A stretch of 64,000 nucleotides of DNA, taken from a virus. Of the stretch, positions 4,417 through 21,706 are shown piece by piece; position 1 is the first letter of the stretch, and each line of letters starts with the position of its first letter. A program made the position numbers and the translations under genes. Under the pieces are notes generated by a model, which saw only the letters and a program-made list of their open reading frames with translations, did no database searches and was not told the DNA's origin. Where the stretch lies: the IMG/VR virus record IMGVR_UViG_3300035670_012130, positions 1 to 64,000 of that record; one strand, given 5' to 3'.

Positions 4417-4449
4417 AACAAGCCGCATTTATGCGGCTTGTTTGTTTTG
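4417..4449 (+). terminator. Intrinsic terminator
   Basis: aacaagccgcat-tt-atgcggcttgtt inverted repeat followed by tgttttg. Confidence 0.8.
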
Positions 4450-4462
4450 TATAACTAAAGAA

Positions 4463-5143
4463 ATGGAATCAAAAAAAGAAACTGTAGATGCACTAATTGT
4501 TCCCGATGAAGGGCCAAAAAAACCATCTAAAATGTTCAGGGATTTAAAAGAAGGCGATAAACCTTTAATGCCTCTTCCTCCTGACAATATGAGTGATATT
4601 TCGTATCCTCAATTTTTAGAACCAAGATGTGCCATTTGTACTTCACCTTTCAGAGATTTGGTAGAACACGTTTATCTTGATTCTGGTCGTAAAAATCAAT
4701 CAGTAATTAGATTTTTCCAACAGTATTTTGATGCACAGATGAACTGGATGCAAATTAATACACACATGGAACAACACTGTGATTTTAAAAAGATCTCGAC
4801 TTCGGGACTTAAGAATTACGAACAACGAGAAGAACTTATTGCTCCTTGGATTTTTCGTGAACATCATCTTGCTCTAACTGCTTTATTAGTAGAACTTGAC
4901 GATGTTAGAGGTATTGACTGCTCTAAAAACAATGATATGAAACTTAAGAGAGCAGCAATGGTAGAAAAATTAATTTCTAAAATTTTGCATCTCAAAGAAG
5001 TTAGAGATAATCAAGGCATTTACAACATTAACATTTTTGAAATCCTTGCTAAATTGCATGAAAAAATGGATTCTGAAAATGACAAAAGAATTATTAGGGA
5101 AGAAATTGTTGCCTTGAGAGAAAAGATTCAACAAGATAATTAA
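4463..5143 (+). CDS. Putative terminase small subunit (Zn-binding)
   Basis: Directly upstream of and translationally coupled to terL; CAIC...H..HC motif; helical C-terminus; ATG 4463 lies 7 nt after GTATAAC. Confidence 0.55.
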   Translation: MESKKETVDALIVPDEGPKKPSKMFRDLKEGDKPLMPLPPDNMSDISYPQFLEPRCAICTSPFRDLVEHVYLDSGRKNQSVIRFFQQYFDAQMNWMQINTHMEQHCDFKKISTSGLKNYEQREELIAPWIFREHHLALTALLVELDDVRGIDCSKNNDMKLKRAAMVEKLISKILHLKEVRDNQGIYNINIFEILAKLHEKMDSENDKRIIREEIVALREKIQQDN

Positions 5144-7254
5144 TGAGAAAACAAACCCAAGTTCCTAAATCTCCTACGGAATTAAGAAATCAATTACTTC
5201 AACAAGCTAATTCTGTCACTGCATTGTTTAAGGATACAGAGTATGCAGATGATTTTGTTGATGAAATTGCTCCTGCCACAAGATCAGAAGTTGCTCCTCC
5301 TCCCAAGCCTCCTAAGGATAGATTCAATCCTGATCAAATTGTAGATATCATCACTTTTATTGAACATCCATATTTTTGTAATCTTAAACCTTATCCTTGG
5401 CAAAAACTTATTCTTAAATGTTTTTATATGGGACAAGAAGGCAATACAAATCTTGTTATAGATGAATCTGACAACCAAGAAGATTGCAAAGGATGTGTTT
5501 GGCATTATATTCAGAAAAATGAAAACGATTTCTTAAAAGCTCGTTCAGAAGGTAGACAATTTAAGACAATTTTTAATGTTGTCAATTCACCTTGTCTCCA
5601 ATGTAAACGTCTTGATAATAAGGTCAGAGAAGAAAGATATAAATTTGCCAAAGATGAAGCTACAAACCCTGATGCTGAAAGACAAGTAGAAATATTAGAA
5701 TCAAGACCAATTATTGATGGTTTCCAAAGTGAATTTGATTTACTTTATTCTGAAGAATTTGATCCAAAATTAAGGATGCAAGTTCAAGAAAAATGCACCA
5801 AAAGATATAAATTTGAAGAATTAGTTTTAGTGCTTGGTAGACGTTCTGGAAAATCGTTCCTTGTTTCTGCTATGGCTCTTTACGAACTTTATAGATTAAT
5901 TTCTATGGGTCATCCTCAAGCAAGATATGGATTAATGGAATTTGATGAGGTTGTCCTTCTTAATGTTGCACGTAATGAAGAACAGGCTAAAAAAGCAATC
6001 TTCTCTAAAATCAAGCAAACAGTTTTAGCATCTCCTTTCTTTGCTCCTTATATTGGTAAAGATACAGAACTTGAAATGCGATTTTATACCGAACACGACA
6101 GAGAAGAGAATGTAAGAAGAAAAGAGCAGAATATCAATTTGTTTGCGGGTTCTTTGGTGCTGAGATGTGGTTCCAGTAATGCTTCTGGTCTTGTTGGTTT
6201 AACTTGTTGGTCAATCATCATGGACGAAGTTGCAGCTATGGCAGGAGACAATCCTGATTCTGGTGTTGATTATGCTCTTTATGATGATCTTAAACCATCT
6301 CTTGCTACATTCGGTAAAGATGGAAAAATGATGCTTCTTTCCAACCCTAAAGGTCCAATTGGGTTGCTTTACGATTTACATGAAAATAGACAAGAAGACC
6401 CTACCACTCTTGTTATGAGACTTCCAACTTGGCTTACTAATCCAAATATTGACAAAGAATGGTTAGATGGGCAAAAGAAAAAAGATCCTCAAGAATTTCA
6501 AATGCAATATGGAGCAGAATTTGGTGCTTCTTCATCTGATCCGATGTTTGTTTCTGATGATATAGATAGAATGTTCTCTTCTATGTCAATGGTAAAAAGA
6601 AAAGAAAGAGCTGAAGGCAATTTTGAGTATTTTTGTCATTTGGATCCAGCTCGAACTTCTGACTATTATGCTCTAGTAATTGCTCATACTGAAAATATGT
6701 ATGGACAAATTGGTCCTGATTTCAAACCATTAAAAAGAGTTGTAATTGACCATATACACTTTTGGAATCCTAAAACTAAAAATCAACCAGTTAAAGAAAG
6801 TGAAGTTGAAGATTATGTAATTGATTTACATAATAAATTTAGATTTAAACAAGTATCTATTGATCAATGGAATTCTCAATCATCTATCATAAAACTACAG
6901 TCTATGAGAGTTCCAATTGTAGAACGTCAATTCAATAAAGAATATAAAGAAAATATTTATGCAGAATTATCTCAATTAGTTCGTGATGATCGAATTGATA
7001 TATATGATATTTCTGGTGGTGAATATTATGATCAAGATAAAAAATTAATTTCTTTAAACGAAATTCAAGAAGCTAAAATACAGTTTTTGTTTTTACAAAA
7101 AAAATGGAAAGGTAAAAGATATTACATCGAAGCCCTTTCTGGATATAAAGATGATATTTGTGATGCTGTAGCTGCTGTAGCTTATGAATGCTTAACATCA
7201 AAAATTATGGTTCGATTACCTAAATCAAAAATGGTCAACCTGAATAGACGATAA
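5143..7254 (+). CDS. terL: Terminase large subunit
   Basis: PYPWQ Q-motif, Walker A LVLGRRSGKS, Walker B IIMDE, LLSNPKG coupling motif, nuclease HLDPARTSD...DDICDAVA. Confidence 0.95.
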   Translation: MRKQTQVPKSPTELRNQLLQQANSVTALFKDTEYADDFVDEIAPATRSEVAPPPKPPKDRFNPDQIVDIITFIEHPYFCNLKPYPWQKLILKCFYMGQEGNTNLVIDESDNQEDCKGCVWHYIQKNENDFLKARSEGRQFKTIFNVVNSPCLQCKRLDNKVREERYKFAKDEATNPDAERQVEILESRPIIDGFQSEFDLLYSEEFDPKLRMQVQEKCTKRYKFEELVLVLGRRSGKSFLVSAMALYELYRLISMGHPQARYGLMEFDEVVLLNVARNEEQAKKAIFSKIKQTVLASPFFAPYIGKDTELEMRFYTEHDREENVRRKEQNINLFAGSLVLRCGSSNASGLVGLTCWSIIMDEVAAMAGDNPDSGVDYALYDDLKPSLATFGKDGKMMLLSNPKGPIGLLYDLHENRQEDPTTLVMRLPTWLTNPNIDKEWLDGQKKKDPQEFQMQYGAEFGASSSDPMFVSDDIDRMFSSMSMVKRKERAEGNFEYFCHLDPARTSDYYALVIAHTENMYGQIGPDFKPLKRVVIDHIHFWNPKTKNQPVKESEVEDYVIDLHNKFRFKQVSIDQWNSQSSIIKLQSMRVPIVERQFNKEYKENIYAELSQLVRDDRIDIYDISGGEYYDQDKKLISLNEIQEAKIQFLFLQKKWKGKRYYIEALSGYKDDICDAVAAVAYECLTSKIMVRLPKSKMVNLNRR

Positions 7255-7280
7255 AGGTAAATTTTTTTATTTATAAGAAC
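7254..7280 (+). promoter_or_regulatory. Putative late promoter AAGGT-N17-AGAAC
   Basis: Same spaced motif recurs at 9671, 17351, 21601, 60338(-) and 63797. Confidence 0.65.
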
Positions 7281-7288
7281 AAATCATT

Positions 7289-8281
7289 ATGTCTAACAAT
7301 ATCAGAACAGCTCAATTTGGTGGTGTAGGCGGTGGAGGTAATGGGTCTCCCTATCAGCCTGGTGGAAGCCCTATTGGTCGTGGTGGATCAAATAGAGGTG
7401 GTCATGAGATTAATCTTTACGTAGATGAAGATGCTAGTTTTGATAAATTGCTTAGAAGAACTCATTTAGAACCAGACACAAGAGATGTTAATCTTGAGTC
7501 GAGGCTTACTCCTCAACATAAAAATTATGAAGATTTAATTCCTTATGAATTAACTCCTGAAGAAAGAATGAGAGCGAAATTTAGAGCTCAACTTCATAAT
7601 TATAAAAAATCACTCGAAAATGCTGCTTCTGACTTGATGAAAAATAGTCCAGCATATATAAAAGAACATTACAGACCTAAAGATGAACATATGATGACTA
7701 TGGAGCAATCTTTAGAAAATCGTCATAAATACAACAAAGATTATAAATATGACAGAGTTGATTACAAAGATCCTGATAAACCTTCAAGATTACATTTTGC
7801 TATATCTGACGAAGTAATTAATCGTGTTGCTGAAGATTATTCAGTAAGAAGAAGAAACAGAATTACTGATGAATATCCTGAAGAACGCAATCAATTTGAT
7901 GAAAAACAATTTTCATATGCTCCTATTGGTAAAACTCCAATATTAACTCATGGTGAAGATTTTGATGGATATATTCAGGACTTAATGACTGTTAACACTC
8001 CTGACCATGATGGTTTTATGGAGTACGAACTCAAGGATACTATTCTTACCTATCCTGATCCAGATGGTAAAGCAAATGTTCATGCACCAAAAGATATAGC
8101 TCCAAAGTCAGAAACATTAAAAGAATCAAATCCTTACATGACTACAGAACAGGCATTGAATCCCAAGAAAAAAGATACAACATATGCAGATTACATAGAT
8201 CCTACTAATAAAGAAGATAAAGGCATAGAAGAAGTTTATGATGGATCTGCTTTTTATGGAATTGGTGGACATAGCTTATAA
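7289..8281 (+). CDS. Hypothetical head-module protein
   Basis: 330 aa; N-terminal MSNNIRTAQ then Gly-rich; NLESRL/TMEQSL/TTEQAL repeats. Confidence 0.7.
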   Translation: MSNNIRTAQFGGVGGGGNGSPYQPGGSPIGRGGSNRGGHEINLYVDEDASFDKLLRRTHLEPDTRDVNLESRLTPQHKNYEDLIPYELTPEERMRAKFRAQLHNYKKSLENAASDLMKNSPAYIKEHYRPKDEHMMTMEQSLENRHKYNKDYKYDRVDYKDPDKPSRLHFAISDEVINRVAEDYSVRRRNRITDEYPEERNQFDEKQFSYAPIGKTPILTHGEDFDGYIQDLMTVNTPDHDGFMEYELKDTILTYPDPDGKANVHAPKDIAPKSETLKESNPYMTTEQALNPKKKDTTYADYIDPTNKEDKGIEEVYDGSAFYGIGGHSL

Positions 8282-8315
8282 AGGTAAGTTAAGGTTTATT
8301 TAATAAGAACAAATT

Positions 8316-8774
8316 ATGGATGCAAAATCAATTCAAACATTAATCAAAGTCTGTTCAAGATTAGACAAAACTGGGCATTATTCAAATGCAGATAGTTTGT
8401 TTGAAAAGATTGCTCAATATTACCCTCAGCAATCAGTAACACAGTCGCCTAATGTATCTTTAGTTCCATATGAGGAGCTTGAAGAAGAATACAAACAAAA
8501 TGATTTTTGGCGACAAAAAATCAATCCTAGAAAAAGAGTACCTGAGTATCGTGACTTAGGTGGCGAGGAAGATGGACAAAATATAGAGGGTCAATTACAT
8601 GGTCCAGATAATGTTCCAGGACCAGCTTACGTAGATCCAGGTAATCCAGCATCAAGTCCTTCAATGGCGATTCATAGCGGTGATGATTTGAACGATAAGT
8701 TTTCCTGGGAAGAAACATATCAGAAAAATGTTGATGAGGGAAATTCTTGGAAAAACAGAATACCAAACAGATAA
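8316..8774 (+). CDS. Hypothetical head-module protein
   Basis: 152 aa; N-terminal helix L..+.SRLDKTGHYSNAD.L..KIAQ; NIEGQL motif. Confidence 0.7.
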   Translation: MDAKSIQTLIKVCSRLDKTGHYSNADSLFEKIAQYYPQQSVTQSPNVSLVPYEELEEEYKQNDFWRQKINPRKRVPEYRDLGGEEDGQNIEGQLHGPDNVPGPAYVDPGNPASSPSMAIHSGDDLNDKFSWEETYQKNVDEGNSWKNRIPNR

Positions 8775-8785
8775 GGAATTAAATT

Positions 8786-9277
8786 ATGCCTATACCAATC
8801 AAACCAGTTCATTCTTTAGATTTACATGCAGAATTATTTGACGGACCATCAATGGAAGGTCTTGGACTTTCAGATATTCAAATTCAACTTCTTGGAGTCT
8901 CACAAGCGCCAAAGAAAATTGAAGCAGCAAAATTAAGTGAAAAGTACTTAGATATGCTTAAAACAATTGATGCCAACACTGATGAATTAGTTACTGCAGC
9001 TAGTTATGTTGCTTTACATAAAGACAGCAAAGTTTGTGGTGTACCTACTGAAATTTCTGACAATGATCTTTTAGCTCTTAAGACTGCAGGATTGCTTACT
9101 GGATATGGAAGATCTGTAGAATTAACTGAAAGAGCAAAATTAGCATTACGTGATCATTATTTAAGCACTGATAATGTTAATGAATTTAGAAAACAAAGAA
9201 CAAAAGATAGATTTGATCTTGAAGAAGCAAGAAGTGTAAAAGCATCTTCAAATAAATTTAGAAAAGTAGGTTCTTGA
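8786..9277 (+). CDS. Hypothetical protein, possibly extended by UGA readthrough
   Basis: 163 aa after AAGGA RBS; ends in TGA in frame with the DUF192 domain. Confidence 0.7.
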   Translation: MPIPIKPVHSLDLHAELFDGPSMEGLGLSDIQIQLLGVSQAPKKIEAAKLSEKYLDMLKTIDANTDELVTAASYVALHKDSKVCGVPTEISDNDLLALKTAGLLTGYGRSVELTERAKLALRDHYLSTDNVNEFRKQRTKDRFDLEEARSVKASSNKFRKVGS

Positions 9278-9658
9278 CTCACTAACAAAGAATTCCGTGA
9301 TGAATTCGATGTTAGGTTTGTAGCAGATACAGATAAATTACGTACTAAAGGTTTAATGGATGCCGAACCTTTGGATGATTATGAAGTAGCATTTTTTACT
9401 TTTGATTATCCAGATTGCTATTCATTTTGGAATAAAAATGTTTCTTTTCCACTTTCTCTAGCATTTTTGGATAAAAATTATAAGATTGTTGATATTAAAG
9501 ATATGGAAGCAGATGACCCTAAATCTGTATCTCCTGATTCGAACAGCGTTGTATTTGTTGTAGAAGCAAATAAAGGATTGTTCAAAAAATTAGGCATCGG
9601 TGTTGGAGATAAATTGTTTTTGAAGGGCAAGAAAGTAATTTTCAGTAAAAAAACATAA
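9278..9658 (+). CDS. DUF192-family domain (N-terminal motif has no start codon of its own)
   Basis: VRFVADTDKLRTKGLM..., FWNKNVSFPLSLAFLD, VVEANKG..KKLGIGVGD; the conserved N-terminal motif lies upstream of ATG 9356. Confidence 0.8.
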   Translation, partial: LTNKEFRDEFDVRFVADTDKLRTKGLMDAEPLDDYEVAFFTFDYPDCYSFWNKNVSFPLSLAFLDKNYKIVDIKDMEADDPKSVSPDSNSVVFVVEANKGLFKKLGIGVGDKLFLKGKKVIFSKKT

Positions 9659-9670
9659 ATGGATGCATTA

Positions 9671-9697
9671 AAGGAATTTGAGCATTAAATTTAGAAA
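9671..9697 (+). promoter_or_regulatory. Putative late promoter AAGGA-N17-AGAAA
   Basis: Matches the recurring spaced motif; intergenic, upstream of 9737. Confidence 0.6.
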
Positions 9698-9736
9698 TTT
9701 TCTTAATGTATTTTTTCTTGAGGAGAAAAATTAATT

Positions 9737-10825
9737 ATGGCAGATAGAATTTTCCCAAACAGATTTCAAGAAGATCCTCTTGATTCTGACTTGGTTTTCC
9801 AAGGAATTGACTGGGACAACTTTAACCAAAGATTAGCCGAGGCAAAAGAGCCAAAAGAGAACAAGGGTCTCAAAGCTCTTATTGATGCTATTGGTGATGA
9901 AGAAGTTGACAGATTGCAAGGCGAAGATCATGAAGATCATGAAGCTGCAATGGACCACAAGGCTGGTTGGAGCAAAGAAGCTAAGAAAGGTCTTCCAGAA
10001 GGTTTGAAAAAGTGGATGGAAGAAAACGGCAAGGGCAAGACAGCAGAATCTGATGATGAAGATTCTGAAAAGTGCCCAGATTGCGATTGTGATCCTTGCG
10101 AATGTGACGAAAAAGATAAAGGTCCTATGAAGAGAAAAGGCCCTAAGTCTAAGTCTGAAAAGAAAGCATTCCATTTCAATCATGCATCACAATTGTCTGC
10201 TGAAGCAGTAGAAGCTGCAATCGCTGCTGGCGATGAAGATCTCAAGGATGCTATTCTTGCTGCTCGCCATGAAAGAAGAGTAAGATTGGCTGGCAAGATT
10301 GAGCGCCAAGTTCAAGCACAACAAGAAACCAATTTAAAGCTTGCACAAAGAAGAGCTTACAGAGAAGCATTGGTTCAAAAAGTTGCTGCAAAGATGGAAG
10401 ATGATAAAGAAGCATCTATGGACAAAACTTGCGAAAAATGTGGCGAGAAGTATGCTGGCAAGGATTGCGAAGCATGTGGATATGCATCATCTGATTCAGA
10501 AATGAAAGAAGCTAAAGCATTCTCATCTGCTGCAAGACAAGCATTTGCTGCTAAGGCAATTGCAGAAGGTTTCCCAGTTGAATATGTAAATGCTAGATTA
10601 GGTGAAACATCAGCTCCTGCAGTTGACAAATTGTCCGATATCAAAAATGTTCTTGCTTCTGATCTTGAAACCAATGTAAAGGTTGCTGCAGCTTCTTCGA
10701 TGATCAAAGTTGCAACACTTTCAGACGCAGACTATTCCAGAATTATTGATTACTGGAAGAACGAACTCGGTTATGGTGATCAAGAGTGGATTGATGCACT
10801 CTTCACTAAGAAATACGACAAGTAA
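9737..10825 (+). CDS. Hypothetical Ala/Lys/Glu-rich head protein with Cys clusters
   Basis: 362 aa; GAGGAG RBS; CPDCDCDPCEC and CEKC..CEAC; several KVA/KEA motifs. Confidence 0.75.
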   Translation: MADRIFPNRFQEDPLDSDLVFQGIDWDNFNQRLAEAKEPKENKGLKALIDAIGDEEVDRLQGEDHEDHEAAMDHKAGWSKEAKKGLPEGLKKWMEENGKGKTAESDDEDSEKCPDCDCDPCECDEKDKGPMKRKGPKSKSEKKAFHFNHASQLSAEAVEAAIAAGDEDLKDAILAARHERRVRLAGKIERQVQAQQETNLKLAQRRAYREALVQKVAAKMEDDKEASMDKTCEKCGEKYAGKDCEACGYASSDSEMKEAKAFSSAARQAFAAKAIAEGFPVEYVNARLGETSAPAVDKLSDIKNVLASDLETNVKVAAASSMIKVATLSDADYSRIIDYWKNELGYGDQEWIDALFTKKYDK

Positions 10826-10837
10826 TAATTACACTCC

Positions 10838-10879
10838 TCAAGATGATGGTCCCAGGGCTCTGCCCTGGGACATTCTTGA
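10838..10879 (+). other. Strong intergenic hairpin without a U-tract
   Basis: gtcccagggc-tct-gccctgggac core extended by tcaaga/tcttga. Confidence 0.65.
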
Positions 10880-10903
10880 AAAGTAAGAGCAGGAAATACA
10901 AAC

Positions 10904-11719
10904 ATGAGCAGATTTAGAAAAGTATCAGAAATCGAAAACATTCCATCATTTTTGGAAAAGAGATTTATTGGCGCTCAAGTTGAAGTTGAAGAAGATCCAT
11001 ACGCTGAGTTAAAGAGAAATTCAACTGCAAATAGACAATCAATTTCTAAACAAAATATTGGTTTTACAAAAGAAGCTAACACAATCAACAAATCTTGGGA
11101 AAAGATTCAAGGTGCATCTACTTATCAAGATCTAAGAGACACCACAATTGAAGATAGAATTCTTTCACAAGATTTTGGTGCTATTAGAAGAGCTGGTTCA
11201 CAATTTGATCAAGGTGAAAATGCAAGAACAACTACAAGTGGATTAAAAGCATTTTCGGCAGATGAATATATGAATGCTATGCTTTCAAGGTCAGCATCTA
11301 TTTTCAACCCAGATATGATTGCAATTTCAGAAGAATTCTTAAATTCACAATCTTCAACTAGTGAACAATCAATTATTGAAAATCAAAGAGCAAGAGAAGC
11401 TAAAGCATCTCGTCATAAAGCTTGGGAAGAAAGCCAAATCAATAACTTGAGACAATCTTCAGTTGTTTCATCAAGAGCACATTCTATCTTAAGAACATCT
11501 TCAGACAATGAATTCAATTCAACATTTGGAATGATTGATCCATCTGCTCTGGACAATCGTGAGTCAATGAGAATTGCTAATCAAGAGAAGATTAGAAACG
11601 AAAGAATGGCAATCAAGAAAAATATACAAAGTGATATGAACAACAAAGCTCAATCAAGAGCAAAAACTATTAATGAAATTTATAATAGTATTGACATAAA
11701 CTTTGATGATATTGATTAA
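10904..11719 (+). CDS. Hypothetical head-module protein
   Basis: 271 aa; AGGA RBS; helical composition. Confidence 0.7.
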   Translation: MSRFRKVSEIENIPSFLEKRFIGAQVEVEEDPYAELKRNSTANRQSISKQNIGFTKEANTINKSWEKIQGASTYQDLRDTTIEDRILSQDFGAIRRAGSQFDQGENARTTTSGLKAFSADEYMNAMLSRSASIFNPDMIAISEEFLNSQSSTSEQSIIENQRAREAKASRHKAWEESQINNLRQSSVVSSRAHSILRTSSDNEFNSTFGMIDPSALDNRESMRIANQEKIRNERMAIKKNIQSDMNNKAQSRAKTINEIYNSIDINFDDID

Positions 11720-12705
11720 TGGATAAACTGTCTCAAATTCAACCGCCTTTAGCCTCGAATCCTGCCAATGGAATAAATAATATTCCATTAAACGGTGAGA
11801 ATGTTGAAGGTGTTACTAAAAACGAAATGAGGCAGTTGATGAATAAAATTAAATCTGCTAGTGAAAACTTTGCTGAATTTTCAAATGAAGTAACGTTGAT
11901 AGCAGACAGAGTGCAAGATAATAACTTGAGACATCAACTATATAAATTATCTAAAGCACTTATTATGTCCAATGACAATAGAACCAGAACAAAAGATCCA
12001 ATTACTCAAGAATTAGATCCAAGCTATATAGATATAGCAAATAAGATTGAACAAACTTATTTATCCGAGGCTAAGAACGTGTACAACAATTCCAAAACAG
12101 CACAGGTCAAAAAGAAAAAGAAAACTAGAGGCAATCCATTCCGTGTTTTAATGGGTAAAGTGGGTAAATTGCTTGATCACGGTGTCGAAAAAAACGATAT
12201 TGTAAGATACATTTCAAAGCTCAAGTATTGGAATAAAGAAACAATTGAACGTGCTGTTGATATTGTTAAAGAATATAACAAAAAATTAGAGCAAGGCAAA
12301 AATAAAGACGAAAAACCAGAAAAAAAAGCAAATGTTGTTGATCTAGATAAATTGGTAAAAAAAGATCAAGAAGTAAAAGAAGAAAAAGAAGATCTTAAGA
12401 AAACTGTTAAAAAAATCAATGACACAGGCGAAGTTGATGAAGCCAAAAAAGATGCCAAAGTCAAAACTGCTGCCTTGAATTACGATTCAAAACCAAACTT
12501 TGAAAAAAGATCTACCGCCGAATTAATTATGAGAGCTTGTTTCCTTATGGATTTACAAGATTATTCTAAAACAACTAAGCAAGGTGATTTTAAAGATGCT
12601 GCTGATAAGAAAGGCGTTAGCGAAGAATTAAAGCAAATTAGAGCAGCTCTTGCCGATAGAGGTTTTGATAAAGAAGAATTATCAAATTTAGGATTGGGTA
12701 AATAA
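11719..12705 (+). CDS. Hypothetical head-module protein (Lys-rich)
   Basis: 328 aa; translationally coupled; KSAS, KTAQ, KTAA motifs; possible internal GTG start at 12079. Confidence 0.7.
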   Translation: MDKLSQIQPPLASNPANGINNIPLNGENVEGVTKNEMRQLMNKIKSASENFAEFSNEVTLIADRVQDNNLRHQLYKLSKALIMSNDNRTRTKDPITQELDPSYIDIANKIEQTYLSEAKNVYNNSKTAQVKKKKKTRGNPFRVLMGKVGKLLDHGVEKNDIVRYISKLKYWNKETIERAVDIVKEYNKKLEQGKNKDEKPEKKANVVDLDKLVKKDQEVKEEKEDLKKTVKKINDTGEVDEAKKDAKVKTAALNYDSKPNFEKRSTAELIMRACFLMDLQDYSKTTKQGDFKDAADKKGVSEELKQIRAALADRGFDKEELSNLGLGK

Positions 12706-12707
12706 TT

Positions 12708-14369
12708 ATGGATAAAGGATATAAAATCAAAGCAACATACGAGACTCACGATCCTAATAAAATTCAAGAGATTATGGACAAAAAACCATTGATTGGCGGT
12801 ACAGGATTACTCAGCATGCTTCAAGATACCCTTTCTGGACTTGGAGATGGTGATTCTATGCCAATGTCTTCTCCTTTTCACGTTTTAGATATGAATGATT
12901 TTGGTGATGATCCAGTAATTTCAGCATTTAGAAATATGGGTGGCCCTGAACATATTGTCAAAGTTGTCGCTCTCCCTGAAAAAGAAGCACATCATCATTT
13001 ACATCACGCTTTTAGTAAACTCAATAATATCAAATTAGCAGAAGAAAGAAATACTCTTCGTTATGCCTATATGGCTTTACAAAACTTTTTAAATAAAGAT
13101 AATGAAGCAGCCAGATTAGAAAGAGTTGCATATAAAACTACAGATAAATCTGCTGGATATTGGCAAATTGAAGCCATCAATACTTTAGACAAGCTTGCAA
13201 AATTTACATCAACTTCATTGAGAATTGCCAAACTTGAAAAAGCTAGAAATGTTGTGTTGTCAGGTGATAAATTGCAAACAACCAAAGTTGCAAATTATTT
13301 ACACAACTGGTATTCAGAAGTTACACCAAAAGAAAACAGAAGAGTAGCATATACATCTTTATTTACTCAGGCAAATGAACCATTTTTACTTTGCCCTAAA
13401 GGTAAATTCCAAGGTTATAAAGCTCCAATTCCTATGGAAATTTCTAAGTGTCGTGAAAATTGTATTGACTCAAGAATTGATAAAGAAGGTCATGTCACTT
13501 GTGCATATCAAGATTGGCTCAAAGTAGCATTCCAATCTCATGATGAAGTTATGGCAAGATTAGATGTTCATAAGCATCCAGACAATGAAGCTAATGCCCT
13601 TGAACTCAAAGAAGGTGAAAGATCCAAAAAACTTACAGAAGGTGAAATTGGATTTGAAGCTAGATTTGATAATTCAGACAGAGGCGCAAATAAAATCAGA
13701 GGCAAACAAAATGTCGATGATTCTAGAGAAAAACAATTGTCCGATGCAAAACAATCTGCTTACGGTCATCAACAAGGCGATAAGCCAGTTATGCGCCCAA
13801 AACAAGCTCAAACTGACTCAAATAAAACAATAGATTCTCAATTACCAAGAAAAGATCAAAAGGGCACTGATTATCTTGAAATGCTTTTGAGAAGATTGAA
13901 CAATAAAGAATCTGAAACAGAAGAGACAAGAGAAGAACAGCTTGACTCTGATGGTCTTTACACTCATCGTGGCGAAATGGAAGAATCTTACGCTGATCAA
14001 TTAAACGTTGATGCCAAAAATCCCATCAATTACAGAGATGAATTGAACAAGGATAAAGATGAGCCAAAAGATTCAATTATTCATCAATTAGATAAAAACA
14101 TCACTGCTTCTAAAAAAGAAATGAATCAAGAACAAATCCTTTCTGAAACTAGAAAGAAAAATGTTGTTGATGTTTCTAGAGATGAACAATTAGAAGACAG
14201 AAGACATAATTCTAAAATCACAAAAAACATCGAAGCTCTTCTAGATGAAGATGATGAAGATAGCTTTGGACATCAATTTTCAGAAGAAGATCTCAAGAGA
14301 TTTGCTGAAGAACTCGGATTAGATTATGTAATGGAATCTAAAAGAGAAGAATACGACGATGTGGTATAA
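12708..14369 (+). CDS. Hypothetical head protein with Cys cluster and E-x-Q-L repeats
   Basis: 553 aa; CPKG..C..C..C; C-terminal half has SREKQL, TIDSQL, TREEQL, SYADQL, SIIHQL, SRDEQL. Confidence 0.75.
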   Translation: MDKGYKIKATYETHDPNKIQEIMDKKPLIGGTGLLSMLQDTLSGLGDGDSMPMSSPFHVLDMNDFGDDPVISAFRNMGGPEHIVKVVALPEKEAHHHLHHAFSKLNNIKLAEERNTLRYAYMALQNFLNKDNEAARLERVAYKTTDKSAGYWQIEAINTLDKLAKFTSTSLRIAKLEKARNVVLSGDKLQTTKVANYLHNWYSEVTPKENRRVAYTSLFTQANEPFLLCPKGKFQGYKAPIPMEISKCRENCIDSRIDKEGHVTCAYQDWLKVAFQSHDEVMARLDVHKHPDNEANALELKEGERSKKLTEGEIGFEARFDNSDRGANKIRGKQNVDDSREKQLSDAKQSAYGHQQGDKPVMRPKQAQTDSNKTIDSQLPRKDQKGTDYLEMLLRRLNNKESETEETREEQLDSDGLYTHRGEMEESYADQLNVDAKNPINYRDELNKDKDEPKDSIIHQLDKNITASKKEMNQEQILSETRKKNVVDVSRDEQLEDRRHNSKITKNIEALLDEDDEDSFGHQFSEEDLKRFAEELGLDYVMESKREEYDDVV

Positions 14370-14892
14370 GCAAGTTTTAGCCCAAGTTGGCGGTGGTGTA
14401 AATTTTACAGGAACAGATAATATTGATTCTGAAAATACTTTTGAAATTGACAAAATCAAAGATGTAGATGATAAGCCAGTAGGACTTTATGATGAGCTTG
14501 CTGGCATATTGGAAAAAATGGGCAAAACACTTGATGAATATTATAATATGAATCAAGAACAACAAAAAGAAGTTTGGGATCTTTTAGTCAATCGCCCACA
14601 TAGAATGAATATGGACAACAATGGTCAATTTATTGTTTCTCCTCAATCTGCATCTATTGAAGCACGTAGACATTCTCCGTATCATGATAGCCCTGAAGAA
14701 ACTTCTATGGAAAATCAATTAGAAGGATCTAGACAGCAAAATAATAACAGAGATCCTCAAAGTATGTCTTCCATAGAAAAAGGTAACAGTTTTCAGCATT
14801 TCAACAATGGCGAGGGTTATTATCAAGCAATTAAGGGCAAACAAGATCCAATTCTTTTTGGGAATAAACCTTCTAATCAAACTTGGTATTAA
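14359..14892 (+). CDS. Hypothetical head-module protein
   Basis: 177 aa; MWYKQVLAQ N-terminus; SMENQL motif. Confidence 0.65.
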   Translation: MWYKQVLAQVGGGVNFTGTDNIDSENTFEIDKIKDVDDKPVGLYDELAGILEKMGKTLDEYYNMNQEQQKEVWDLLVNRPHRMNMDNNGQFIVSPQSASIEARRHSPYHDSPEETSMENQLEGSRQQNNNRDPQSMSSIEKGNSFQHFNNGEGYYQAIKGKQDPILFGNKPSNQTWY

Positions 14893-14917
14893 TTTTTAGA
14901 ACGGTATAATATATGTT

Positions 14918-17290
14918 ATGGCAAATAGAACATCATTGGCTTCTGCTATCAGAACAGCAGCAACACAAGTATCAGGAGCAACAACCCCAACATCAACTGT
15001 AGACAAAAATTATGCTAGTAGCAGAATTGGTCTTGGCTTAGGACCCAGTGTTACAAGAACTGCAAGCATAAACACGGTAACTACATCACCAAATTTCTAT
15101 TCGCCTTTCTTAACTCCATCATCTTTTCAGATCCCAAATGCTCGTCGTGAAGTTTATCTTTGGGCAAACTGGTGGAGAAATAACGAGCCGAAAATTGCTG
15201 CAGCCATCAATTTCTATACTAATTATCCTTTCTCTGGTTGGAAATTAGAATGTTCTTCATCTTATGTCAAAGATTATTTTGAAAAGTTAGTAGAATCACT
15301 TAATTTTCAAAAGTGGCTTCCAGAGATTTCCAAAACTTATCATTTATTGGGCGACTCTTTTGTATTACTTTCACTTGATTGTCCTCATTGTCACGGTTCA
15401 AACTGGGATAACGACAAAAATCAAGAATGTGAGCATGATGGCGCCACATGGAAATCCATTTCAATTTTAAATCCAGATTCTGTGATTAAGAGTCCAGGAA
15501 TGATTGATCAGCCTGGTAGTTATGCTTATAGACCATCTGCAGAAGAAATCAGAATTGTCAACGAAAGACATCCAAAAGAAATCTACGACAAAATACCTGA
15601 TGATATTAAAAAAATGATTATGCAAGGTAATCCTATAAAGCTTAATCCAATTTCTATTCATCATTTTAAATATGGATCAAACCCATGGGAAGATTATGGA
15701 ATTTCTATGATCAGACCATTGTTCCCAATTTTGACCTATAAAGATAAATTACGCCAAGCTCAATATATGATTGCCGAACGTCTCATCTTGCCAATCAAGG
15801 TTGTAAAAATTGGTAGTGATACAAGACCGGCATCTCAAGAAGATATTGATAATGTCCAGGATGAATTAGCATCTATTGCAAATGACCCTAACTTGACTCT
15901 TGTTACTCACCACAACTTTGATCTCGAATGGTATGGAGCAACAGGTAAAATACACCCTCTTACTGGTGAGTTCGAATTAATTGAACAAGAAATTTTAGAT
16001 GGTGTAATGTTAAATAAAGCTCTTTTAAATGGCGAAGGTCCAACTTACGGAAACGCTCAAGTTGGTCTTCTTGCTATGGCTCAAAGATTGGAAACATTTA
16101 GAAGAGAAGTTGCACACTGGATTGAACAAAATGTTTTTATGCCAGTAGCTAAATGGAATGGCTTTGTAATTGAAGGTGAAAGAGGACAGGACGAATTAGT
16201 TTATCCTAAAATTAAATTCGATGATCTTCAATTGCGTGATGATACTGGTAAGTTGCAAATGCTTGTTACTGCAAATCAAAACGGTGTTATTTCTAATGTT
16301 TCTCTTATCGAAGCCTTTGGCTTAGATTCTGATCAAGAAATTGAAAGATTAAGATTCGAACAAGGTGCAAACTTTGTTAACGATCAATCTTTTGGCACCC
16401 CTAACATTTCTTTAAGTTTTCAAAGCGGAGGAGTTACAGGACAAGGTTTTGGAGCTGGATCTCCTGATGCAACTGGTGGTATGGGTGCTCCTCCTCCAGC
16501 AGATTTAGCAGTCGGTGGTGCTGCCACACCTCCTGCCGGTGGAGCAATTCCTCCAGCTCCAGCCCCTGGCGCAGCAGCCCCTACTGCTTCAGTTATGACA
16601 AAAAACTATAAATTAGCAAGCTCTGTCATAAATGAAATTTACGATGAAAGAATCAATGCTAAGAATTCTAGTGTTAGAACCGCAAGTAAAAGAATAAAGT
16701 CTGCAGCTCATGAAGGATTCTTAATGTCATTGACTCCAGTTACAGGAAGAGGCTCGCTTGGTCCACTACCTAGTGAATACGATGGTTTGTTTGGTTCATT
16801 ACAAATGCCTCTTTGTGGTGGAGATAATTCTCATCCACTAAACAATTATGCATTAGAAGAATTTTATCATTATGCAAATAATGAGAATGAATCTATCAAG
16901 AGATATGCCAAAAAGAAAATAGATGTCACTCAACAGCCAAAAATGTTTACTAGTTTAGAGAAAAAACTTTATGGTTTGACTATGTCGTTAAATATGCCAT
17001 TTCCACTTTATGCACAATATTCAGCTGGACCAACGATGGATTATCAATTAGATGCTGCTATTCCTAACCTTAAGATAGGAATTGAAGCTGATGGTGAAAT
17101 TTGGCATAACAACCCTGACAAAATAGCAAAAGATAAGCGAAGAGATTCAGAATTAGCTGCAAATGGATGGATTATTATCAGATTTACTGACAAAGAAATT
17201 AATGATCACCCTCAAGATTGTTTAAATGTTTTGATAAAAGCTATCAAAAAGCGAACAGGTATGGGTGATGGAAATTCGGAATATCTATAA
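14918..17290 (+). CDS. Portal protein with C-terminal DUF559 (PD-(D/E)xK-like) endonuclease domain
   Basis: Position between terminase and protease; portal-like IHHFKY..PWEDYGISMIRPLF and PIKVVKIG; C-terminal YQLDAAIPNLKIGIEADGEIWH...DKRRDSELAANGWIIIRF. Confidence 0.8.
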   Translation: MANRTSLASAIRTAATQVSGATTPTSTVDKNYASSRIGLGLGPSVTRTASINTVTTSPNFYSPFLTPSSFQIPNARREVYLWANWWRNNEPKIAAAINFYTNYPFSGWKLECSSSYVKDYFEKLVESLNFQKWLPEISKTYHLLGDSFVLLSLDCPHCHGSNWDNDKNQECEHDGATWKSISILNPDSVIKSPGMIDQPGSYAYRPSAEEIRIVNERHPKEIYDKIPDDIKKMIMQGNPIKLNPISIHHFKYGSNPWEDYGISMIRPLFPILTYKDKLRQAQYMIAERLILPIKVVKIGSDTRPASQEDIDNVQDELASIANDPNLTLVTHHNFDLEWYGATGKIHPLTGEFELIEQEILDGVMLNKALLNGEGPTYGNAQVGLLAMAQRLETFRREVAHWIEQNVFMPVAKWNGFVIEGERGQDELVYPKIKFDDLQLRDDTGKLQMLVTANQNGVISNVSLIEAFGLDSDQEIERLRFEQGANFVNDQSFGTPNISLSFQSGGVTGQGFGAGSPDATGGMGAPPPADLAVGGAATPPAGGAIPPAPAPGAAAPTASVMTKNYKLASSVINEIYDERINAKNSSVRTASKRIKSAAHEGFLMSLTPVTGRGSLGPLPSEYDGLFGSLQMPLCGGDNSHPLNNYALEEFYHYANNENESIKRYAKKKIDVTQQPKMFTSLEKKLYGLTMSLNMPFPLYAQYSAGPTMDYQLDAAIPNLKIGIEADGEIWHNNPDKIAKDKRRDSELAANGWIIIRFTDKEINDHPQDCLNVLIKAIKKRTGMGDGNSEYL

Positions 17291-17317
17291 TTGAATAATA
17301 GTTTGTCACTGTACAAT

Positions 17318-17348
17318 AAACCCGTCGATTTCGACGGGTTTAAATTTT
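17318..17348 (+). terminator. Intrinsic terminator
   Basis: aaacccgtcg-attt-cgacgggttt followed by aaatttt. Confidence 0.75.
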
Positions 17349-17350
17349 AC

Positions 17351-17376
17351 AGGTTTTAATATGTTAAAAATAGAAC
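17351..17376 (+). promoter_or_regulatory. Putative late promoter AGGT-N17-AGAAC
   Basis: Recurring spaced motif right after a terminator, upstream of the protease gene. Confidence 0.65.
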
Positions 17377-17415
17377 AAATCCTATTGATAACTTTATTTT
17401 TTAAGGATTGAAAAT

Positions 17416-20400
17416 ATGTACAAGGTTGCAAAAGGAGGAGCTATTACAATAAATAGTTTCCTCAACGAAAATGACCGAAATATAGCTAGAGATTATATTA
17501 TTAAGACTGCTTCATCAAATATGAGAGAAGCTGCAAAAATCGGTCTTCAATCTCTCTACGCTGATCCAAAAGAAGTCCTAGAAAAATACAAAGATTTCGA
17601 CATTGTTAAAGAAATGCAGGCTCGTAAAGGTGCAAAACTTTTATGGGTTAGAGCCAGAGCAATTGATGCTGACGTGGTTAATGCTAATGGTGACCTTTTC
17701 TCTAAAGAAGAATTACTTAAAGAAGTTGAAATTAAAGGCAAAAAAATCCCATCTTATAAAACATTTGAAGGTGTGCCAATTTATACAAACCACAAAAATG
17801 ATGATATTGAACAAGCAAAAGGAATGGTTGTATATGCTGAATGGGATGAAGAAGAAGACTGTGTTTATTGTACTTTCTTTGTAGATGAAGAGGCTTATCC
17901 AGATATTGCAAGAAATATTCGCACTGGTGTTATCCACGATGTTTCAATGGGCGCTAGTGTTGAATGGGGTGTTTGTTCAGTCTGTGGAAATAAAGCATAT
18001 ACCGAAAGAGATTATTGTGATCACCTCAAGAGATATAAAGGAAAAATTTACCCTGAATCTGGCAAAAAAGCATACGAAAAGAACTACGGTGTAAAGTTTA
18101 TTGAATTGAGCTGTGTGGGCGATGGTGCTTTTGAATCTTGCGAAATCCAAGAAATCTATGATGTAGACGATGTTCTTGATGCTGCAATGAATTTAGAAAA
18201 GAAAGCTAATGAAATTTCAGCTAATATAGTTTTAGCATTACAAGGATCTCCTCAAGAATCTTCATCTAGAACAGAATACGAAAATTGTCTAAGAGTAGCA
18301 AATTCTACAGCAAAAACTGCAGTAAGATTAGCACAACAAGCTGGTACTCTTGTAGGTGGTCCATTATTAGCTGGGGCTGGGGCAAATCAAAATTCAACTG
18401 TTCAAGCCGTTTTGACAGCACTTGGTATAGACCCTGCCTCTGGATTAAATATACTAGACTTGATTAATTTATCATTGAACTTCTTGGAAGTTGCAGTGAT
18501 GAATATGTTTGCAAGAAAAGACAATGTTGACTTAGGGCACGTAGGTAAAGTCACCAAATCAATGGCTGAACTCCAATCTACTATGCAAGATATGATCGAT
18601 GATGGAATTGATGTTGGTTCTGGACAAAGACCTCAACAAATCAATCAACCTCAAAATATGCAACAAGGACAAGCACCACAAGCTTCTCCAATGAATGCCA
18701 ATATTGGTTTGGCAAATTATGCGCCTACCGAATCTGTTGGAAAAATAATGGATCTTACTTATTCTGGAGATCAAGGCAGCCAAGTTGGAGGCGGTGTTGC
18801 ATTAGCCTCCAGCGTTCATAATTTGGTATGGGCTTCAAGAGATGGTAAAAGAGAAGTTTTTGCTAGTGCTCAAAACGGTTCATCTTCCAATAAAATTCTG
18901 AATTTGACACAAAGTATTTTAAATTTAAAAGAAAATTTAAATAATAGTACACAAATTCAAAAAAGTATTGATAATGTCATTAGAATTGCTAATGAAAGAA
19001 GCAAAAATATAAAAACAAATACGCCTTTCGTGGCGGGGAGCAGAAATCAAATGGATCACTTTGCAAAGATTGCATCAGAGCAAAGAAAAAAACTTGCTGC
19101 TGCAGTTACAATCGATTTTAAAGTCGAAGACAATGCAGGTAATAGAGTTGTTCTTTCTACTGATGGTTCAATCACAGGTTACACAAATGGAAAAAGAACT
19201 GCTTGGGAACCTATCCTTAATGAAAACCAACTTGGTTTGATGGAAAATGGACAAGGTACAAGAGTTGCTGCTGAATTGCTTAAAGATTATTCACAATTTG
19301 TCAAGACAGCTTTGCTTGATGTTAAAGAAAGACTTGATGACAGAGAAAAGCAACTTGATGAAGTTAGAAGTGGTGAATCATATGATAATTTACACGAAGG
19401 TGTTAAGTCAAAAAACACTGGGGTTGTCAATGAAGTTCGTGAAAAACAATTAGCACCAAAGCAAACTGGATCAAGCCAAGATGCAGTAACAGAAATTCTT
19501 CTCGGCGACGCTGGGCTTTATGGCAGAAGAGTTAAAGATGAAGAAGTACGTAAATCTTTGACCCAGCTTGTTGATGAAGTTACTCACGGAGTTCCAACTG
19601 AAGTTTTAGAAAAACAATTATCAAACCATCGTGCGGAAGGTTCTGCTAATGCAACTGAAATTATGACAGCAACAATAACTGCATTAGGCAAAGCTGTTAT
19701 CTCTTCATTGGAAACACCAAAGACAATTGTTAGAGTTGCTCAAACTTTAGCCCAAGAACCAATGCTTCCAGAAATGATTGGAACTGCTGCTGCAGGTACT
19801 GAAATGGAAGCAGACAAGGCAGAAAAGACAGACTTCTTTGGCGGAGACGCAACACCAGAAAATTCTGTGTCTGCTGTTCTTAAGCAATTAGGTGCTGCTG
19901 TTACTTCTGAAATTACTGCAAAAGATCTTGCTGATGCTCTTTCAGTTGCAGTTGAAGAAGGTGAAATGACCAAGGAAGGCGTTTCAAGAATTGCCGAACT
20001 TCTCATGGGTCAAGCAAACGTACCTGATGAAGGTTTAGATGTTGAGACTGCCCCTTCAAAGACTGAAGAACTAAAGTCTGCTCTTATGTCAGCTGTAGAT
20101 GCTGATGCTGATCTCATTTCTAAAGATGATCTTAAATCAGCAATTTCTGCTATGGCTATGTCTTCAAAAGAAACTGGAACTACTCCTGATGAAGTAGTTG
20201 ATTCTGTAGATGCTATGCCAGAAAAGCAATTGATGGCTGCTATTGATAGAGCAAAGACAGCTACTGCAACTGATGGAAGATTGAGAGCAAGAGCAAGAAG
20301 AGAATTCTGGGGTGTCAAGACTGCATCCACAAAGAACATTTCTGATAACGTTGTTGGCTGGTTAGCAGATTACTCAACAAACTTTGGAATTAGCACAAGA

Positions 20401-21552
20401 AGAATTGCAAAAGCTGCAAAGAGGCTTTGTGAAGAATTTGAAGTTGCTGAAAAGTTAGTTGCTAAGGCAGTAATTGCTTCTGAAAGAACAGCTGGAATGA
20501 CTGTTACTCAAAGTAAATCTGACTGTATTAGATTTATGTGTAGAGCTGAAGATTTAGATGGTGTACAACCTAGCGACAGCAATTTTGATGAATCATTTAA
20601 GCAAAAGGCAATTGAAGTTTTGCAAGGACATGGATTCCAAGTTGACCCAGGAACATTCTCATTTACAGACCTAATTGTTTCTGAAAATGGAGATGTTACT
20701 GCAACAGTTTCAACATCTTCTTCAAAAACATTCAAGACTGATGAAGAACATGGCGAAATGAATGCTGAAGAAGGCGTTGAAATGCCTGTTATTATGACCG
20801 AAGGTGCTAGAATTGCTAGAAAGAATAGAAGAGACAGTATTTTAGCAAAATATGCACAAGTTGCTCCAGGGATGGGTGCTCCTGCTCCTGCTGGACCTGC
20901 GGCTGGTCCAGTTGATCCAGGTTTAGGTGCTGGTGCCCCTGCTGGTGGTGATTTAGGAATTTCATCACTTACTGGTGGTGCTGATATGAATGAGTCAGCT
21001 GATATGGATGCTATTGCAGAACCAGGCGAAAAGAAGCCTTGGGGTTCAGTCTGCCCAGTTTGTGGCTCTGATGATGTTAATATTTCTGAGTCAAATGCTG
21101 ACTGTCAAAGCTGTGGTACTACTTACAAAATTCTTCAACAAATTGAACTAGTTTCAATGGGAGATAAGGGTAAGTCTTCACCTGAAGAAGAACCAATGGG
21201 ACTTGGACCAGATACAGGTTTAGGTGCAGCTACAGCTCCTACAGAAATGCCACCTGCTGCTCCTGCTGCCCCTGGAATGGGTCCTGTTGCTTCTGATATC
21301 AGAACAATGGTTAGATTATCAGCTACAGTCGATTCTGATGTTTATCTGAAGACTGCATTGCCTTCGTTTGACAGAACTGCAGAATCAATGCTTCCTGTGG
21401 GTATGGTTTGTCCATCTTGCGGAAATAGAGAAGCACATAAAGTCAAGAATAATACATTCTGCTATAAGTGTGGAAATTATTCAAGAACAACTGTACAAGC
21501 CTCAAAGAAAGATCCATCAAAGCTTGATGTGTCCATTACTTGGATAGATTAA
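17416..21552 (+). CDS. Prohead maturation protease fused to a long scaffold/core-like region with Zn ribbons
   Basis: N-terminal NANGDLFSKEEL..YKTFEGVPIYTNH..DIEQAKG..DVSMGASV..CSVCGN..FIELSCV (HK97/assemblin-like protease pattern); helical Ala-rich middle; CPVC/CQSC/CPSC/CYKC at the C-terminus. Confidence 0.75.
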   Translation: MYKVAKGGAITINSFLNENDRNIARDYIIKTASSNMREAAKIGLQSLYADPKEVLEKYKDFDIVKEMQARKGAKLLWVRARAIDADVVNANGDLFSKEELLKEVEIKGKKIPSYKTFEGVPIYTNHKNDDIEQAKGMVVYAEWDEEEDCVYCTFFVDEEAYPDIARNIRTGVIHDVSMGASVEWGVCSVCGNKAYTERDYCDHLKRYKGKIYPESGKKAYEKNYGVKFIELSCVGDGAFESCEIQEIYDVDDVLDAAMNLEKKANEISANIVLALQGSPQESSSRTEYENCLRVANSTAKTAVRLAQQAGTLVGGPLLAGAGANQNSTVQAVLTALGIDPASGLNILDLINLSLNFLEVAVMNMFARKDNVDLGHVGKVTKSMAELQSTMQDMIDDGIDVGSGQRPQQINQPQNMQQGQAPQASPMNANIGLANYAPTESVGKIMDLTYSGDQGSQVGGGVALASSVHNLVWASRDGKREVFASAQNGSSSNKILNLTQSILNLKENLNNSTQIQKSIDNVIRIANERSKNIKTNTPFVAGSRNQMDHFAKIASEQRKKLAAAVTIDFKVEDNAGNRVVLSTDGSITGYTNGKRTAWEPILNENQLGLMENGQGTRVAAELLKDYSQFVKTALLDVKERLDDREKQLDEVRSGESYDNLHEGVKSKNTGVVNEVREKQLAPKQTGSSQDAVTEILLGDAGLYGRRVKDEEVRKSLTQLVDEVTHGVPTEVLEKQLSNHRAEGSANATEIMTATITALGKAVISSLETPKTIVRVAQTLAQEPMLPEMIGTAAAGTEMEADKAEKTDFFGGDATPENSVSAVLKQLGAAVTSEITAKDLADALSVAVEEGEMTKEGVSRIAELLMGQANVPDEGLDVETAPSKTEELKSALMSAVDADADLISKDDLKSAISAMAMSSKETGTTPDEVVDSVDAMPEKQLMAAIDRAKTATATDGRLRARARREFWGVKTASTKNISDNVVGWLADYSTNFGISTRRIAKAAKRLCEEFEVAEKLVAKAVIASERTAGMTVTQSKSDCIRFMCRAEDLDGVQPSDSNFDESFKQKAIEVLQGHGFQVDPGTFSFTDLIVSENGDVTATVSTSSSKTFKTDEEHGEMNAEEGVEMPVIMTEGARIARKNRRDSILAKYAQVAPGMGAPAPAGPAAGPVDPGLGAGAPAGGDLGISSLTGGADMNESADMDAIAEPGEKKPWGSVCPVCGSDDVNISESNADCQSCGTTYKILQQIELVSMGDKGKSSPEEEPMGLGPDTGLGAATAPTEMPPAAPAAPGMGPVASDIRTMVRLSATVDSDVYLKTALPSFDRTAESMLPVGMVCPSCGNREAHKVKNNTFCYKCGNYSRTTVQASKKDPSKLDVSITWID

Positions 21553-21559
21553 TATTTAT

Positions 21560-21595
21560 AAATAGTGAGGGAAAAAATCCCTCACTATTTTCTTT
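21560..21595 (+). terminator. Intrinsic terminator
   Basis: aaatagtgaggga-aaaaa-tccctcactattt followed by tcttt. Confidence 0.85.
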
Positions 21596-21600
21596 AAAAA

Positions 21601-21626
21601 AGGTGTAAAAACAATTTATCTAGAAG
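21601..21626 (+). promoter_or_regulatory. Putative late promoter AGGT-N17-AGAAG
   Basis: Recurring spaced motif right after a terminator, upstream of the scaffold-capsid operon. Confidence 0.65.
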
Positions 21627-21706
21627 TTAAAAAAAAGTTTATAAATAACTAATTTATAGATTCTTTGATAAAAGATTTTATTTTTATTAAGGGAAGCAGC
21701 ATAAAA

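Follow-up and report, generated by a model that had tools for sequence, protein, structure and literature searches.

How are the dozens of internal proteins of a large phage head recruited into the prohead? This step is understood only for the N-terminal targeting peptide of T4 and, in part, for the propeptides of phiKZ-like phages. The question is raised by the first 64 kb of IMG/VR record IMGVR_UViG_3300035670_012130, a single 106-kb contig of an uncultured freshwater jumbo phage (these 64,000 nucleotides are the window hereafter), in which a short motif is repeated within and across unrelated head proteins. The original prediction, made from the sequence alone, described this motif as [ST]-x-E-x-Q-L, located it between positions 7289 and 19640, and proposed a multivalent helical docking motif that binds the capsid interior or core in the manner of encapsulin cargo-loading peptides. 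Our analysis partly supports this interpretation; the motif is probably a docking or assembly tag and not a protease cutting site. More broadly, the head proteins of this abundant and uncultured clade carry two separable short codes, one resembling a protease site and the other a docking helix.

Enrichment and conservation of the motif

Genes are designated here by their start position in the window. All the peptides listed by the original prediction were found at the genes to which it assigned them, and the repetition of the motif in head proteins is real. Within the head module, which starts with the large terminase gene, the strict pattern [ST]-x-E-x-Q-L has three matches (SREKQL and TREEQL in 12708, SMENQL in 14359) and the core E-x-Q-L has nine (one in 8316, two in 12708, one in 14359 and five in 17416), against 1.17 expected, a number reached in 0 of 1000 within-protein shuffles; EKQL alone is found five times for 0.11 expected. 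The other 65 open reading frames (ORFs) of the genome contain four E-x-Q-L matches for 4.55 expected, which corresponds to chance. When all gapped three-residue patterns of the head module are scanned without bias, E.QL ranks among the top ones, alongside KTA and RTA and below zinc-ribbon patterns of the C..CG type. Its Bonferroni-corrected p value of about 0.2 on this genome alone is borderline, and the evidential weight therefore comes from conservation. Single E-x-Q-L matches in two large non-head proteins (LEKQLD and NEEQLS, in ORFs 63975-66833 and 67497-71417) are consistent with chance.

Conservation was followed in about 90 related viral contigs and in 104 distant homologues of the 553-aa product of 12708. 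The 27 relatives of the close set, at 57-91% identity, retain E, Q and L and vary at the intervening positions. Across families, an alignment-based scan provided 71 loci in which the order of the head genes is the same, from phages that reach 479 kb. The motif stands at orthologous positions in six protein families, namely 7289 (four sites), 8316, 10904, 12708, 14359 and the middle of 17416 (27 diverse loci), and this positional conservation holds down to about 25% identity. Conservation in orthologues, on which the original prediction had made itself dependent, is thus found.

Alignment of 15 orthologous sites leads to the refined consensus [T/S/N]-[I/L/M]-E-x-x-L-[E/D]-x-x-[R/H/K], with T/S/N in 71% at position -2, I/L/M in 67% at -1, E in 77% at 0, L in 78% at +3, E/D in 39% at +4 and R/H/K in 57% at +7. 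Five positions are constrained (-1 to a hydrophobic residue, 0 to E, +3 to L, +4 to an acidic residue and +7 to R/H/K); several sites accept D, Q or N at position 0, among them site 50 of 7289 and site 642 of 17416 (listed below). The initial pattern keeps its E and its L, but S/T is no more than preferred at -2, as is Q at +2. Indeed, the strict pattern was rejected as the true one, given that Q at +2 is specific to certain sites and not to the genome and that S/T at -2 is missing in the copies of the protease fusion.

Across orthologues, the motif instances of the window have a mean conservation of 0.56, versus 0.13-0.39 for 11 control patterns of similar make-up. Furthermore, over 19 non-redundant loci, the generalized motif occurs 146 times for 30.5 expected in the six carrier families (4.8-fold, a ratio that weighs more than the z-scores), while it stays at expectation in the other head proteins (27 versus 28.6) and in the family of the acidic scaffold-like protein 21665 (3 versus 5.5). 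The motif is thus confined to head-internal proteins, as had been proposed, and an origin by chance or composition is ruled out by the within-protein shuffles and the control patterns. All copies are internal or C-terminal, none lying in the first 45 residues of any carrier, and in 7289, 14359 and the tails of 12708 they form conserved islands, with copy turnover, in divergent disordered sequence.

The carriers and their copies

The main carrier gene, 12708 (12708..14369, plus strand), encodes a protein of 553 aa for which a full HMMER search retrieved 104 diverse cluster representatives, down to about 20% identity. Its conserved N-domain (residues 1 to about 300) comprises a four-helix bundle and a small subdomain with four Cys residues (229, 248, 252 and 265) that are at least 90% conserved. 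This domain (window 12708-13610) found nothing in Pfam, PHROGs, a PDB sequence search, the ESM Atlas or Foldseek against PDB and BFVD; in VIA-align, four-helix bundles (FliS, HPt) match residues 100-207 with a Z of about 11, which is below the meaningful level for helical bundles and denotes generic matches. The tail (about 310-553) is disordered, carries about ten copies of the motif and ends in a conserved helix-turn-helix. All 104 homologues have such a disordered tail after the N-domain, with 2-8 copies of [S/N/T]-hydrophobic-E-x-x-[L/M]; the number and spacing of the copies vary and the motif persists. Moreover, conservation of at least 90% in the family (68 members) is limited to 12 positions, two of which are E317 and E341, the Glu of the first and second copies.

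AlphaFold2 (AF2), run with an alignment of 68 sequences, predicts the N-domain with a predicted local distance difference test (pLDDT) score of 80-96 and the tail with 45-67, whereas a single-sequence run was uninformative (pLDDT 40). In the tail, helices are predicted on the copies (residue ranges below) and begin directly after the S/T/N of each copy, with a pLDDT above that of the intervening linkers (349-353, 362-369, 416-425, 464-472 and 514-523, all below 50). The spacing of positions -1, +3 and +7 is that of i, i+4 and i+8 in a helix, and the residues favored at -2 are those of a helix N-cap. The description of the motif as short, helical and multivalent therefore stands, in so far as it is multicopy, located in disordered regions and predicted to be helical. 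The copies of 12708 are the following.

13650..13667, plus strand: GFEARF (E317), just after the N-domain; helix 316-322
13722..13739, plus strand: SREKQL (E341), the best-conserved copy, with E in 62/66 and L in 58/66 homologues to about 20% identity; helix 340-346, beginning after S339
13827..13844, plus strand: TIDSQL, K-[TV]-[ILV]-[EDN]-x-Q-L-P-R in nearer homologues; helix 375-378
13872..13889, plus strand: YLEMLL, looser, Y-L-E-x-L-L kept in close orthologues; helix 388-398
13926..13943, plus strand: TREEQL, E-x-Q-L invariant in the relatives at 57-91% identity; helix 408-412
13986..14003, plus strand: SYADQL, degenerate, Y-x-x-Q-L kept in close orthologues
14073..14090, plus strand: SIIHQL, degenerate, followed by ITASKK, a site of the K-x-A-S type (see below), for which homologues have LNKTA[KS]K
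14124..14141, plus strand: NQEQIL, looser; helix 474-484
14175..14192, plus strand: SRDEQL, followed by EDRRH, in a DNA repeat with the SREKQL unit (72% identity); helix 491-496
14226..14243, plus strand: NIEALL, with E in 55/66, L in 54/66 and H/R at +7 in 34/59 homologues; helix 508-513

The copies are for the most part no DNA repeats, as stated initially, the exception being a 46-nt direct repeat (13693-13738 and 14146-14191, 72% identity) encoding two paralogous 15-residue units, R-x-K-x-N-V-x-D-x-S-R-[E/D]-x-Q-L, so that the tail of 12708 seems to have grown partly by an old internal duplication. With this one weak pair found, DNA repeats were rejected as the source of the copies.

The 7289 gene (7289..8281, plus strand) encodes a largely disordered head protein of 330 aa. 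In the alignment of 22 orthologues (24-63% identity), its conserved islands are the four copies of the motif, an N-terminal RTA-Q site and a Gly-rich stretch. The 14359 protein is divergent apart from its SMENQL site. The copies of these and of the remaining carriers are as follows.

7436..7453, plus strand: SFDKLL in 7289 (site 50), followed by RRTH; position 0 E10/D9/N2, +7 H14/R6
7490..7507, plus strand: NLESRL in 7289, followed by TPQH; E 21/21, L 21/21, H at +7 21/21
7697..7714, plus strand: TMEQSL in 7289, followed by ENRH; T 19/21, E 21/21, L 21/22, R/H/K at +7 22/22
8141..8158, plus strand: TTEQAL in 7289; E 18/22, L/M/I 20/22
8580..8597, plus strand: NIEGQL in the 152-aa protein of gene 8316-8774; N-Phi-E-G-x-L-H-G-P-D in the alignment of 24 orthologues
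11144..11161, plus strand: TIEDRI in the 271-aa protein of gene 10904-11719; S-x-E-x-R-L in orthologues
14704..14721, plus strand: SMENQL in the 177-aa protein of gene 14359-14892, followed by EGSR; L 15/15, R at +7 15/15, E 13/15
19339..19356, plus strand: DREKQL in 17416 (site 642), followed by DEVR; L/V 23/23, R/H/K at +7 23/23, position 0 E12/D5/Q4/N2
19435..19452, plus strand: VREKQL in 17416, aligned in orthologues
19603..19620, plus strand: VLEKQL in 17416, followed by SNHR; E 21/23, L/I 23/23, R at +7 16/23
20215..20232, plus strand: MPEKQL in 17416, in an invariant stretch; it may be just part of a folded domain

Among the looser copies proposed initially, NLESRL, TMEQSL and TTEQAL of 7289 as well as NIEGQL, NIEALL and SRDEQL are conserved in position in distant orthologues, but VTEILL, SIIHQL, YLEMLL and NQEQIL are weaker. 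Copies do lie within 7289-19640, but the motif extends to TIEDRI of 10904 and, outside these coordinates, to MPEKQL, both absent from the initial list. A further sequence, SLEKKL at residue 679 of the portal, was set aside as it probably lies in the N-terminal part of the DUF559/Vsr-like domain, the Pfam match of which starts downstream at residue 706. In the 8316 protein, the copy opens a conserved Pro/Gly-rich island, N-Phi-E-G-x-L-H-G-P-D-x-V-P-G-P-A-Y-V-D-P-G (8580-8640).

The head module is organized as follows.

5143, plus strand: large terminase, start of the head module
7289, 8316, 8786, 9356 (DUF192), 9737, 10904, 11719 and 12708, plus strand: genes of unknown function after the terminase
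14359, plus strand: a further protein of unknown function, after 12708
14918, plus strand: portal fused to a DUF559 domain
17416..21552, plus strand: prohead-protease fusion, 1378 aa
21665, plus strand: acidic scaffold-like protein, 570 aa
23412 and 24258, plus strand: two paralogues, 217-218 aa
24946-25800, plus strand: HK97-type major capsid protein, 284 aa (phrog_2522, E 3.6e-68)

The order terminase, internal proteins, portal, protease fusion and acidic protein is kept in contigs of about 100 to 479 kb (L029-L093), and proteins of the 23412/24258 type are also found in the conserved order where the flank reaches them. A single head-assembly system thus serves phages of widely different genome size. 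As stated in the original prediction, the major capsid protein is of the HK97 type without a delta domain, and it aligns end to end with gp27 of phage G (48-49% identity). Homologues of the head proteins of the window are limited in phage G to the portal, the protease and the capsid protein, and mycobacteriophage Cali has homologues of the protease and the capsid protein; the phage collection yielded no cultured relative with the carrier proteins.

Docking helix, cleavage site or local helix

To the reading of the motif as a multivalent docking or assembly motif we give roughly an even chance. Each copy would fold as an N-capped amphipathic helix of two to three turns, and the one to about ten copies borne by six unrelated internal head proteins would dock on a common partner within the assembling prohead. 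Docking would recruit the carriers and hold them in the prohead, or cross-link them into an internal core. That the motif binds anything, and which partner it binds, we infer; candidate partners would be clade-specific proteins, for instance the scaffold part of 17416 or the four-helix bundle of the 12708 protein. A clade-specific partner is likelier than the capsid protein alone because phage G, with a capsid protein 49% identical, is unenriched in the motif and has no homologues of the carriers. On a more tentative level, the copies could act as the 'stickers' of a multivalent internal network that binds a clade-specific receptor domain, such as this four-helix bundle, or the inner capsid surface and builds the core scaffolding the delta-less HK97-type capsid of these 100-480 kb jumbo phages, the helix of about 10 residues being then a portable encapsidation tag; we regard this elaborated version as possible, short of favoring it. 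If docking is true, it would provide a testable rule of cargo recruitment for capsids whose major protein is devoid of a scaffold domain, and a small tag to package foreign proteins in phage heads.

Several points weigh against a docking helix. The pLDDT of the tail of 12708 is just 45-67, and internal duplication, as read from the 46-nt repeat, explains part of the repetition in this protein. The 8316 copy, N-I-E-G-Q-L-H-G-P-D, lies in a Gly/Pro context that would suit an extended peptide over a helix. The carrier families were picked after the motif had been seen and the related loci are not independent, so that z-scores overstate significance. Finally, [S/T/N]-x-E appears similar to the [S/A/G]-x-E of phiKZ-like phages, and putative catalytic residues of the protease have hhalign matches, of a probability below 2%, to other prohead proteases.

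Among the alternatives, the one that survives best, though we consider it unlikely, is that the copies have no shared partner and represent a helix-start sequence that recurs in acidic disordered regions as a result of duplication and similar composition, with local roles only (transient helices, spacing or charge patterning in a DNA-filled head). The 46-nt repeat tying two units of 12708 fits with this view, as do the acidic flanks of low complexity, the general preference of helix caps for S/T/N at -2 and for E near the start, and the ability of the loose pattern to hit an unrelated helix in the DUF559 domain of the portal. However, neither the enrichment nor the conservation is reproduced by composition-matched shuffles and the 11 control patterns, six unrelated families have the extended consensus in common, with R/H/K at +7, and in 7289 and 14359 the motif forms conserved islands amid divergence.

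We find it more doubtful still that the copies are cleavage sites of the prohead protease, cut after Glu, in which case maturation would reduce the tails and the 330-aa protein to small peptides. Prohead-protease sites are L/I-x-E in T4 and [S/A/G]-x-E in phiKZ and SPN3US (PMC7411985, PMC10052503), and [S/T/N]-x-E is similar to the phiKZ-type motif (PMC7411985, PMC10052503). Furthermore, the copies form arrays in disordered regions at a spacing of 15-35 aa, the 8316 copy has a Gly at +1 and a Pro/Gly context, and the protease of distant relatives is annotated like T4 gp21. The protease domain of 17416 (residues about 34-268, matching phrog_18299 and phrog_2774) has H126 and S177 as putative catalytic residues; hhalign of single sequences places them opposite the NH and S motifs of both T4 gp21 and HK97 gp4, but weakly, with probabilities below 2%. 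Since His and Ser align in both cases with poor statistics, assignment of the protease to the T4 or the HK97 branch was rejected and gives no inference on specificity; a profile search of the protease against PDB sequences found nothing. On the other hand, position 0 tolerates D, Q and N (E 77% over the 15 sites), and a protease strictly requiring Glu is therefore a poor fit. In addition, the constraints at +3, +4 and +7 fall on what would be the primed side, unlike a site with Glu at P1, and E-x-x-L is not enriched in phage G and Cali, which share the protease, nor in the scaffold-like 21665.

All head-internal groups are enriched in another motif, [K/R]-[T/V/I]-A-[S/A/G]. Counted as [K/R]-[T/V/I/S/K]-A-[S/A/Q/G/N], it exceeds expectation three- to six-fold in every one of them (235 versus 61, 54 versus 8.3 and 177 versus 55), with a peak in the scaffold-like 21665 (54 versus 8.3). 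It spans 3684-23377 in the window, lies near N-termini (residues 6-9 of 7289, 12-15 and 47-50 of the portal) and brackets the protease domain in all lineages, with KTA-S at 30-33 and KKA-N (IK[ST]A in distant members) just after the domain. The same bracketing is seen in gp19 of phage G, whose protease is 39% identical to that of 17416 over 158 aa. Motifs of the K/R-T-A type are at or near the top of the unbiased scans in phage G (L028, 1-30000; KTA as top match, 11 versus 1.9, and K.AS 12 versus 2.4) and in Cali (L096, 30000-56000; RTA 9 versus 1.9 and TAG 12 versus 3.4). This second motif is thus common to three lineages that share the protease and the capsid protein and, judged from these patterns, [K/R]-[T/V/I]-A-[S/A/G/Q] is probably the cleavage site of the prohead protease and a better candidate than E-x-x-L. 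It resembles the Ala-Ser sites of herpesvirus assemblin. A motif specific to phage G, E..HF, was looked at and found unconvincing.

The N-terminus of the 7289 protein has a conserved N-I-[K/R]-T-A-Q followed by F-G-G-V-G-G-G-G (window 7289-7400), and a cut at this site would leave a new N-terminus rich in glycine. The protease fusion of some lineages reaches 1780-1869 aa (L029:14901-20324, L087:15326-20935 and L089:13765-19107); the alignment breaks directly after the catalytic-serine motif DVSMGC, and the insertion at this point may be an intein. The gp93 of Cali (L096:15352-19212), annotated as 'tape measure', has an N-terminal domain homologous to the prohead protease (33.5% identity over residues 52-241) and, as in 17416, a long extension after it; its annotation looks wrong.

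The idea of a role after infection, in which the carriers would be ejection proteins and the motif would bind a host target or the portal/tail channel on exit, is very improbable: the carriers are encoded between terminase and portal, presumably like the internal or ejection proteins of other large phages, and multicopy short motifs would be common in effector-like proteins, but the motif also occurs in the protease-scaffold fusion, an assembly protein, and is kept in phages whose hosts probably differ (their contigs come from many metagenomes).

Comparison with known targeting and scaffolding elements

The cleavage motifs of T4 and phiKZ-type phages contain Glu, are present in many head proteins and sometimes form arrays within propeptides (PMC10052503). 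The motif described here is likewise short, Glu-containing and repeated in many head proteins; it differs by the constraints on L at +3 and R/H/K at +7, by the D/Q/N accepted in place of Glu, by the presence of a better candidate of the K-x-A-S type, and by its lack of enrichment in the scaffold-like 21665 and in the relatives sharing the protease.

A precedent in terms of working is the capsid targeting sequence (CTS) of T4, a short peptide carried by the unrelated internal proteins IPI-III and Alt, which enter the prohead through its binding to the core (PMC7411985, PMC3012670). In both cases, a short peptide is common to unrelated internal head proteins. While the CTS is present once, as an N-terminal propeptide of 10-20 aa with a protease site at its end, and is removed, the copies described here are internal or C-terminal, reach about ten per protein, have another sequence and do not adjoin candidate cleavage sites.

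The analogy with encapsulins drawn by the original prediction holds for function, as a short tag on unrelated cargo would dock inside an HK97-fold shell without a delta domain, but sequence, position and copy number all differ. Encapsulin cargo-loading peptides are usually single, terminal, Gly/Ser/Leu-rich and extended, whereas the present motif is acidic, predicted to be helical, multicopy and mostly non-terminal.

In P22 gp8, the staphylococcal 80alpha scaffold and SaPI1 CpmB, a short C-terminal amphipathic helix contacts the capsid protein, and such a helix can be shared by unrelated proteins; the 12708 protein, too, has a conserved helix-turn-helix at its end. These coat-binding helices are single C-terminal elements, basic in P22, whereas the motif is repeated, acidic and scattered in disordered regions. 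Taken together, this comparison suggests that the motif resembles the CTS, the encapsulin peptides and the scaffold helices in its working, and that it departs from each of them in the defining features considered, i.e. position, copy number and sequence.

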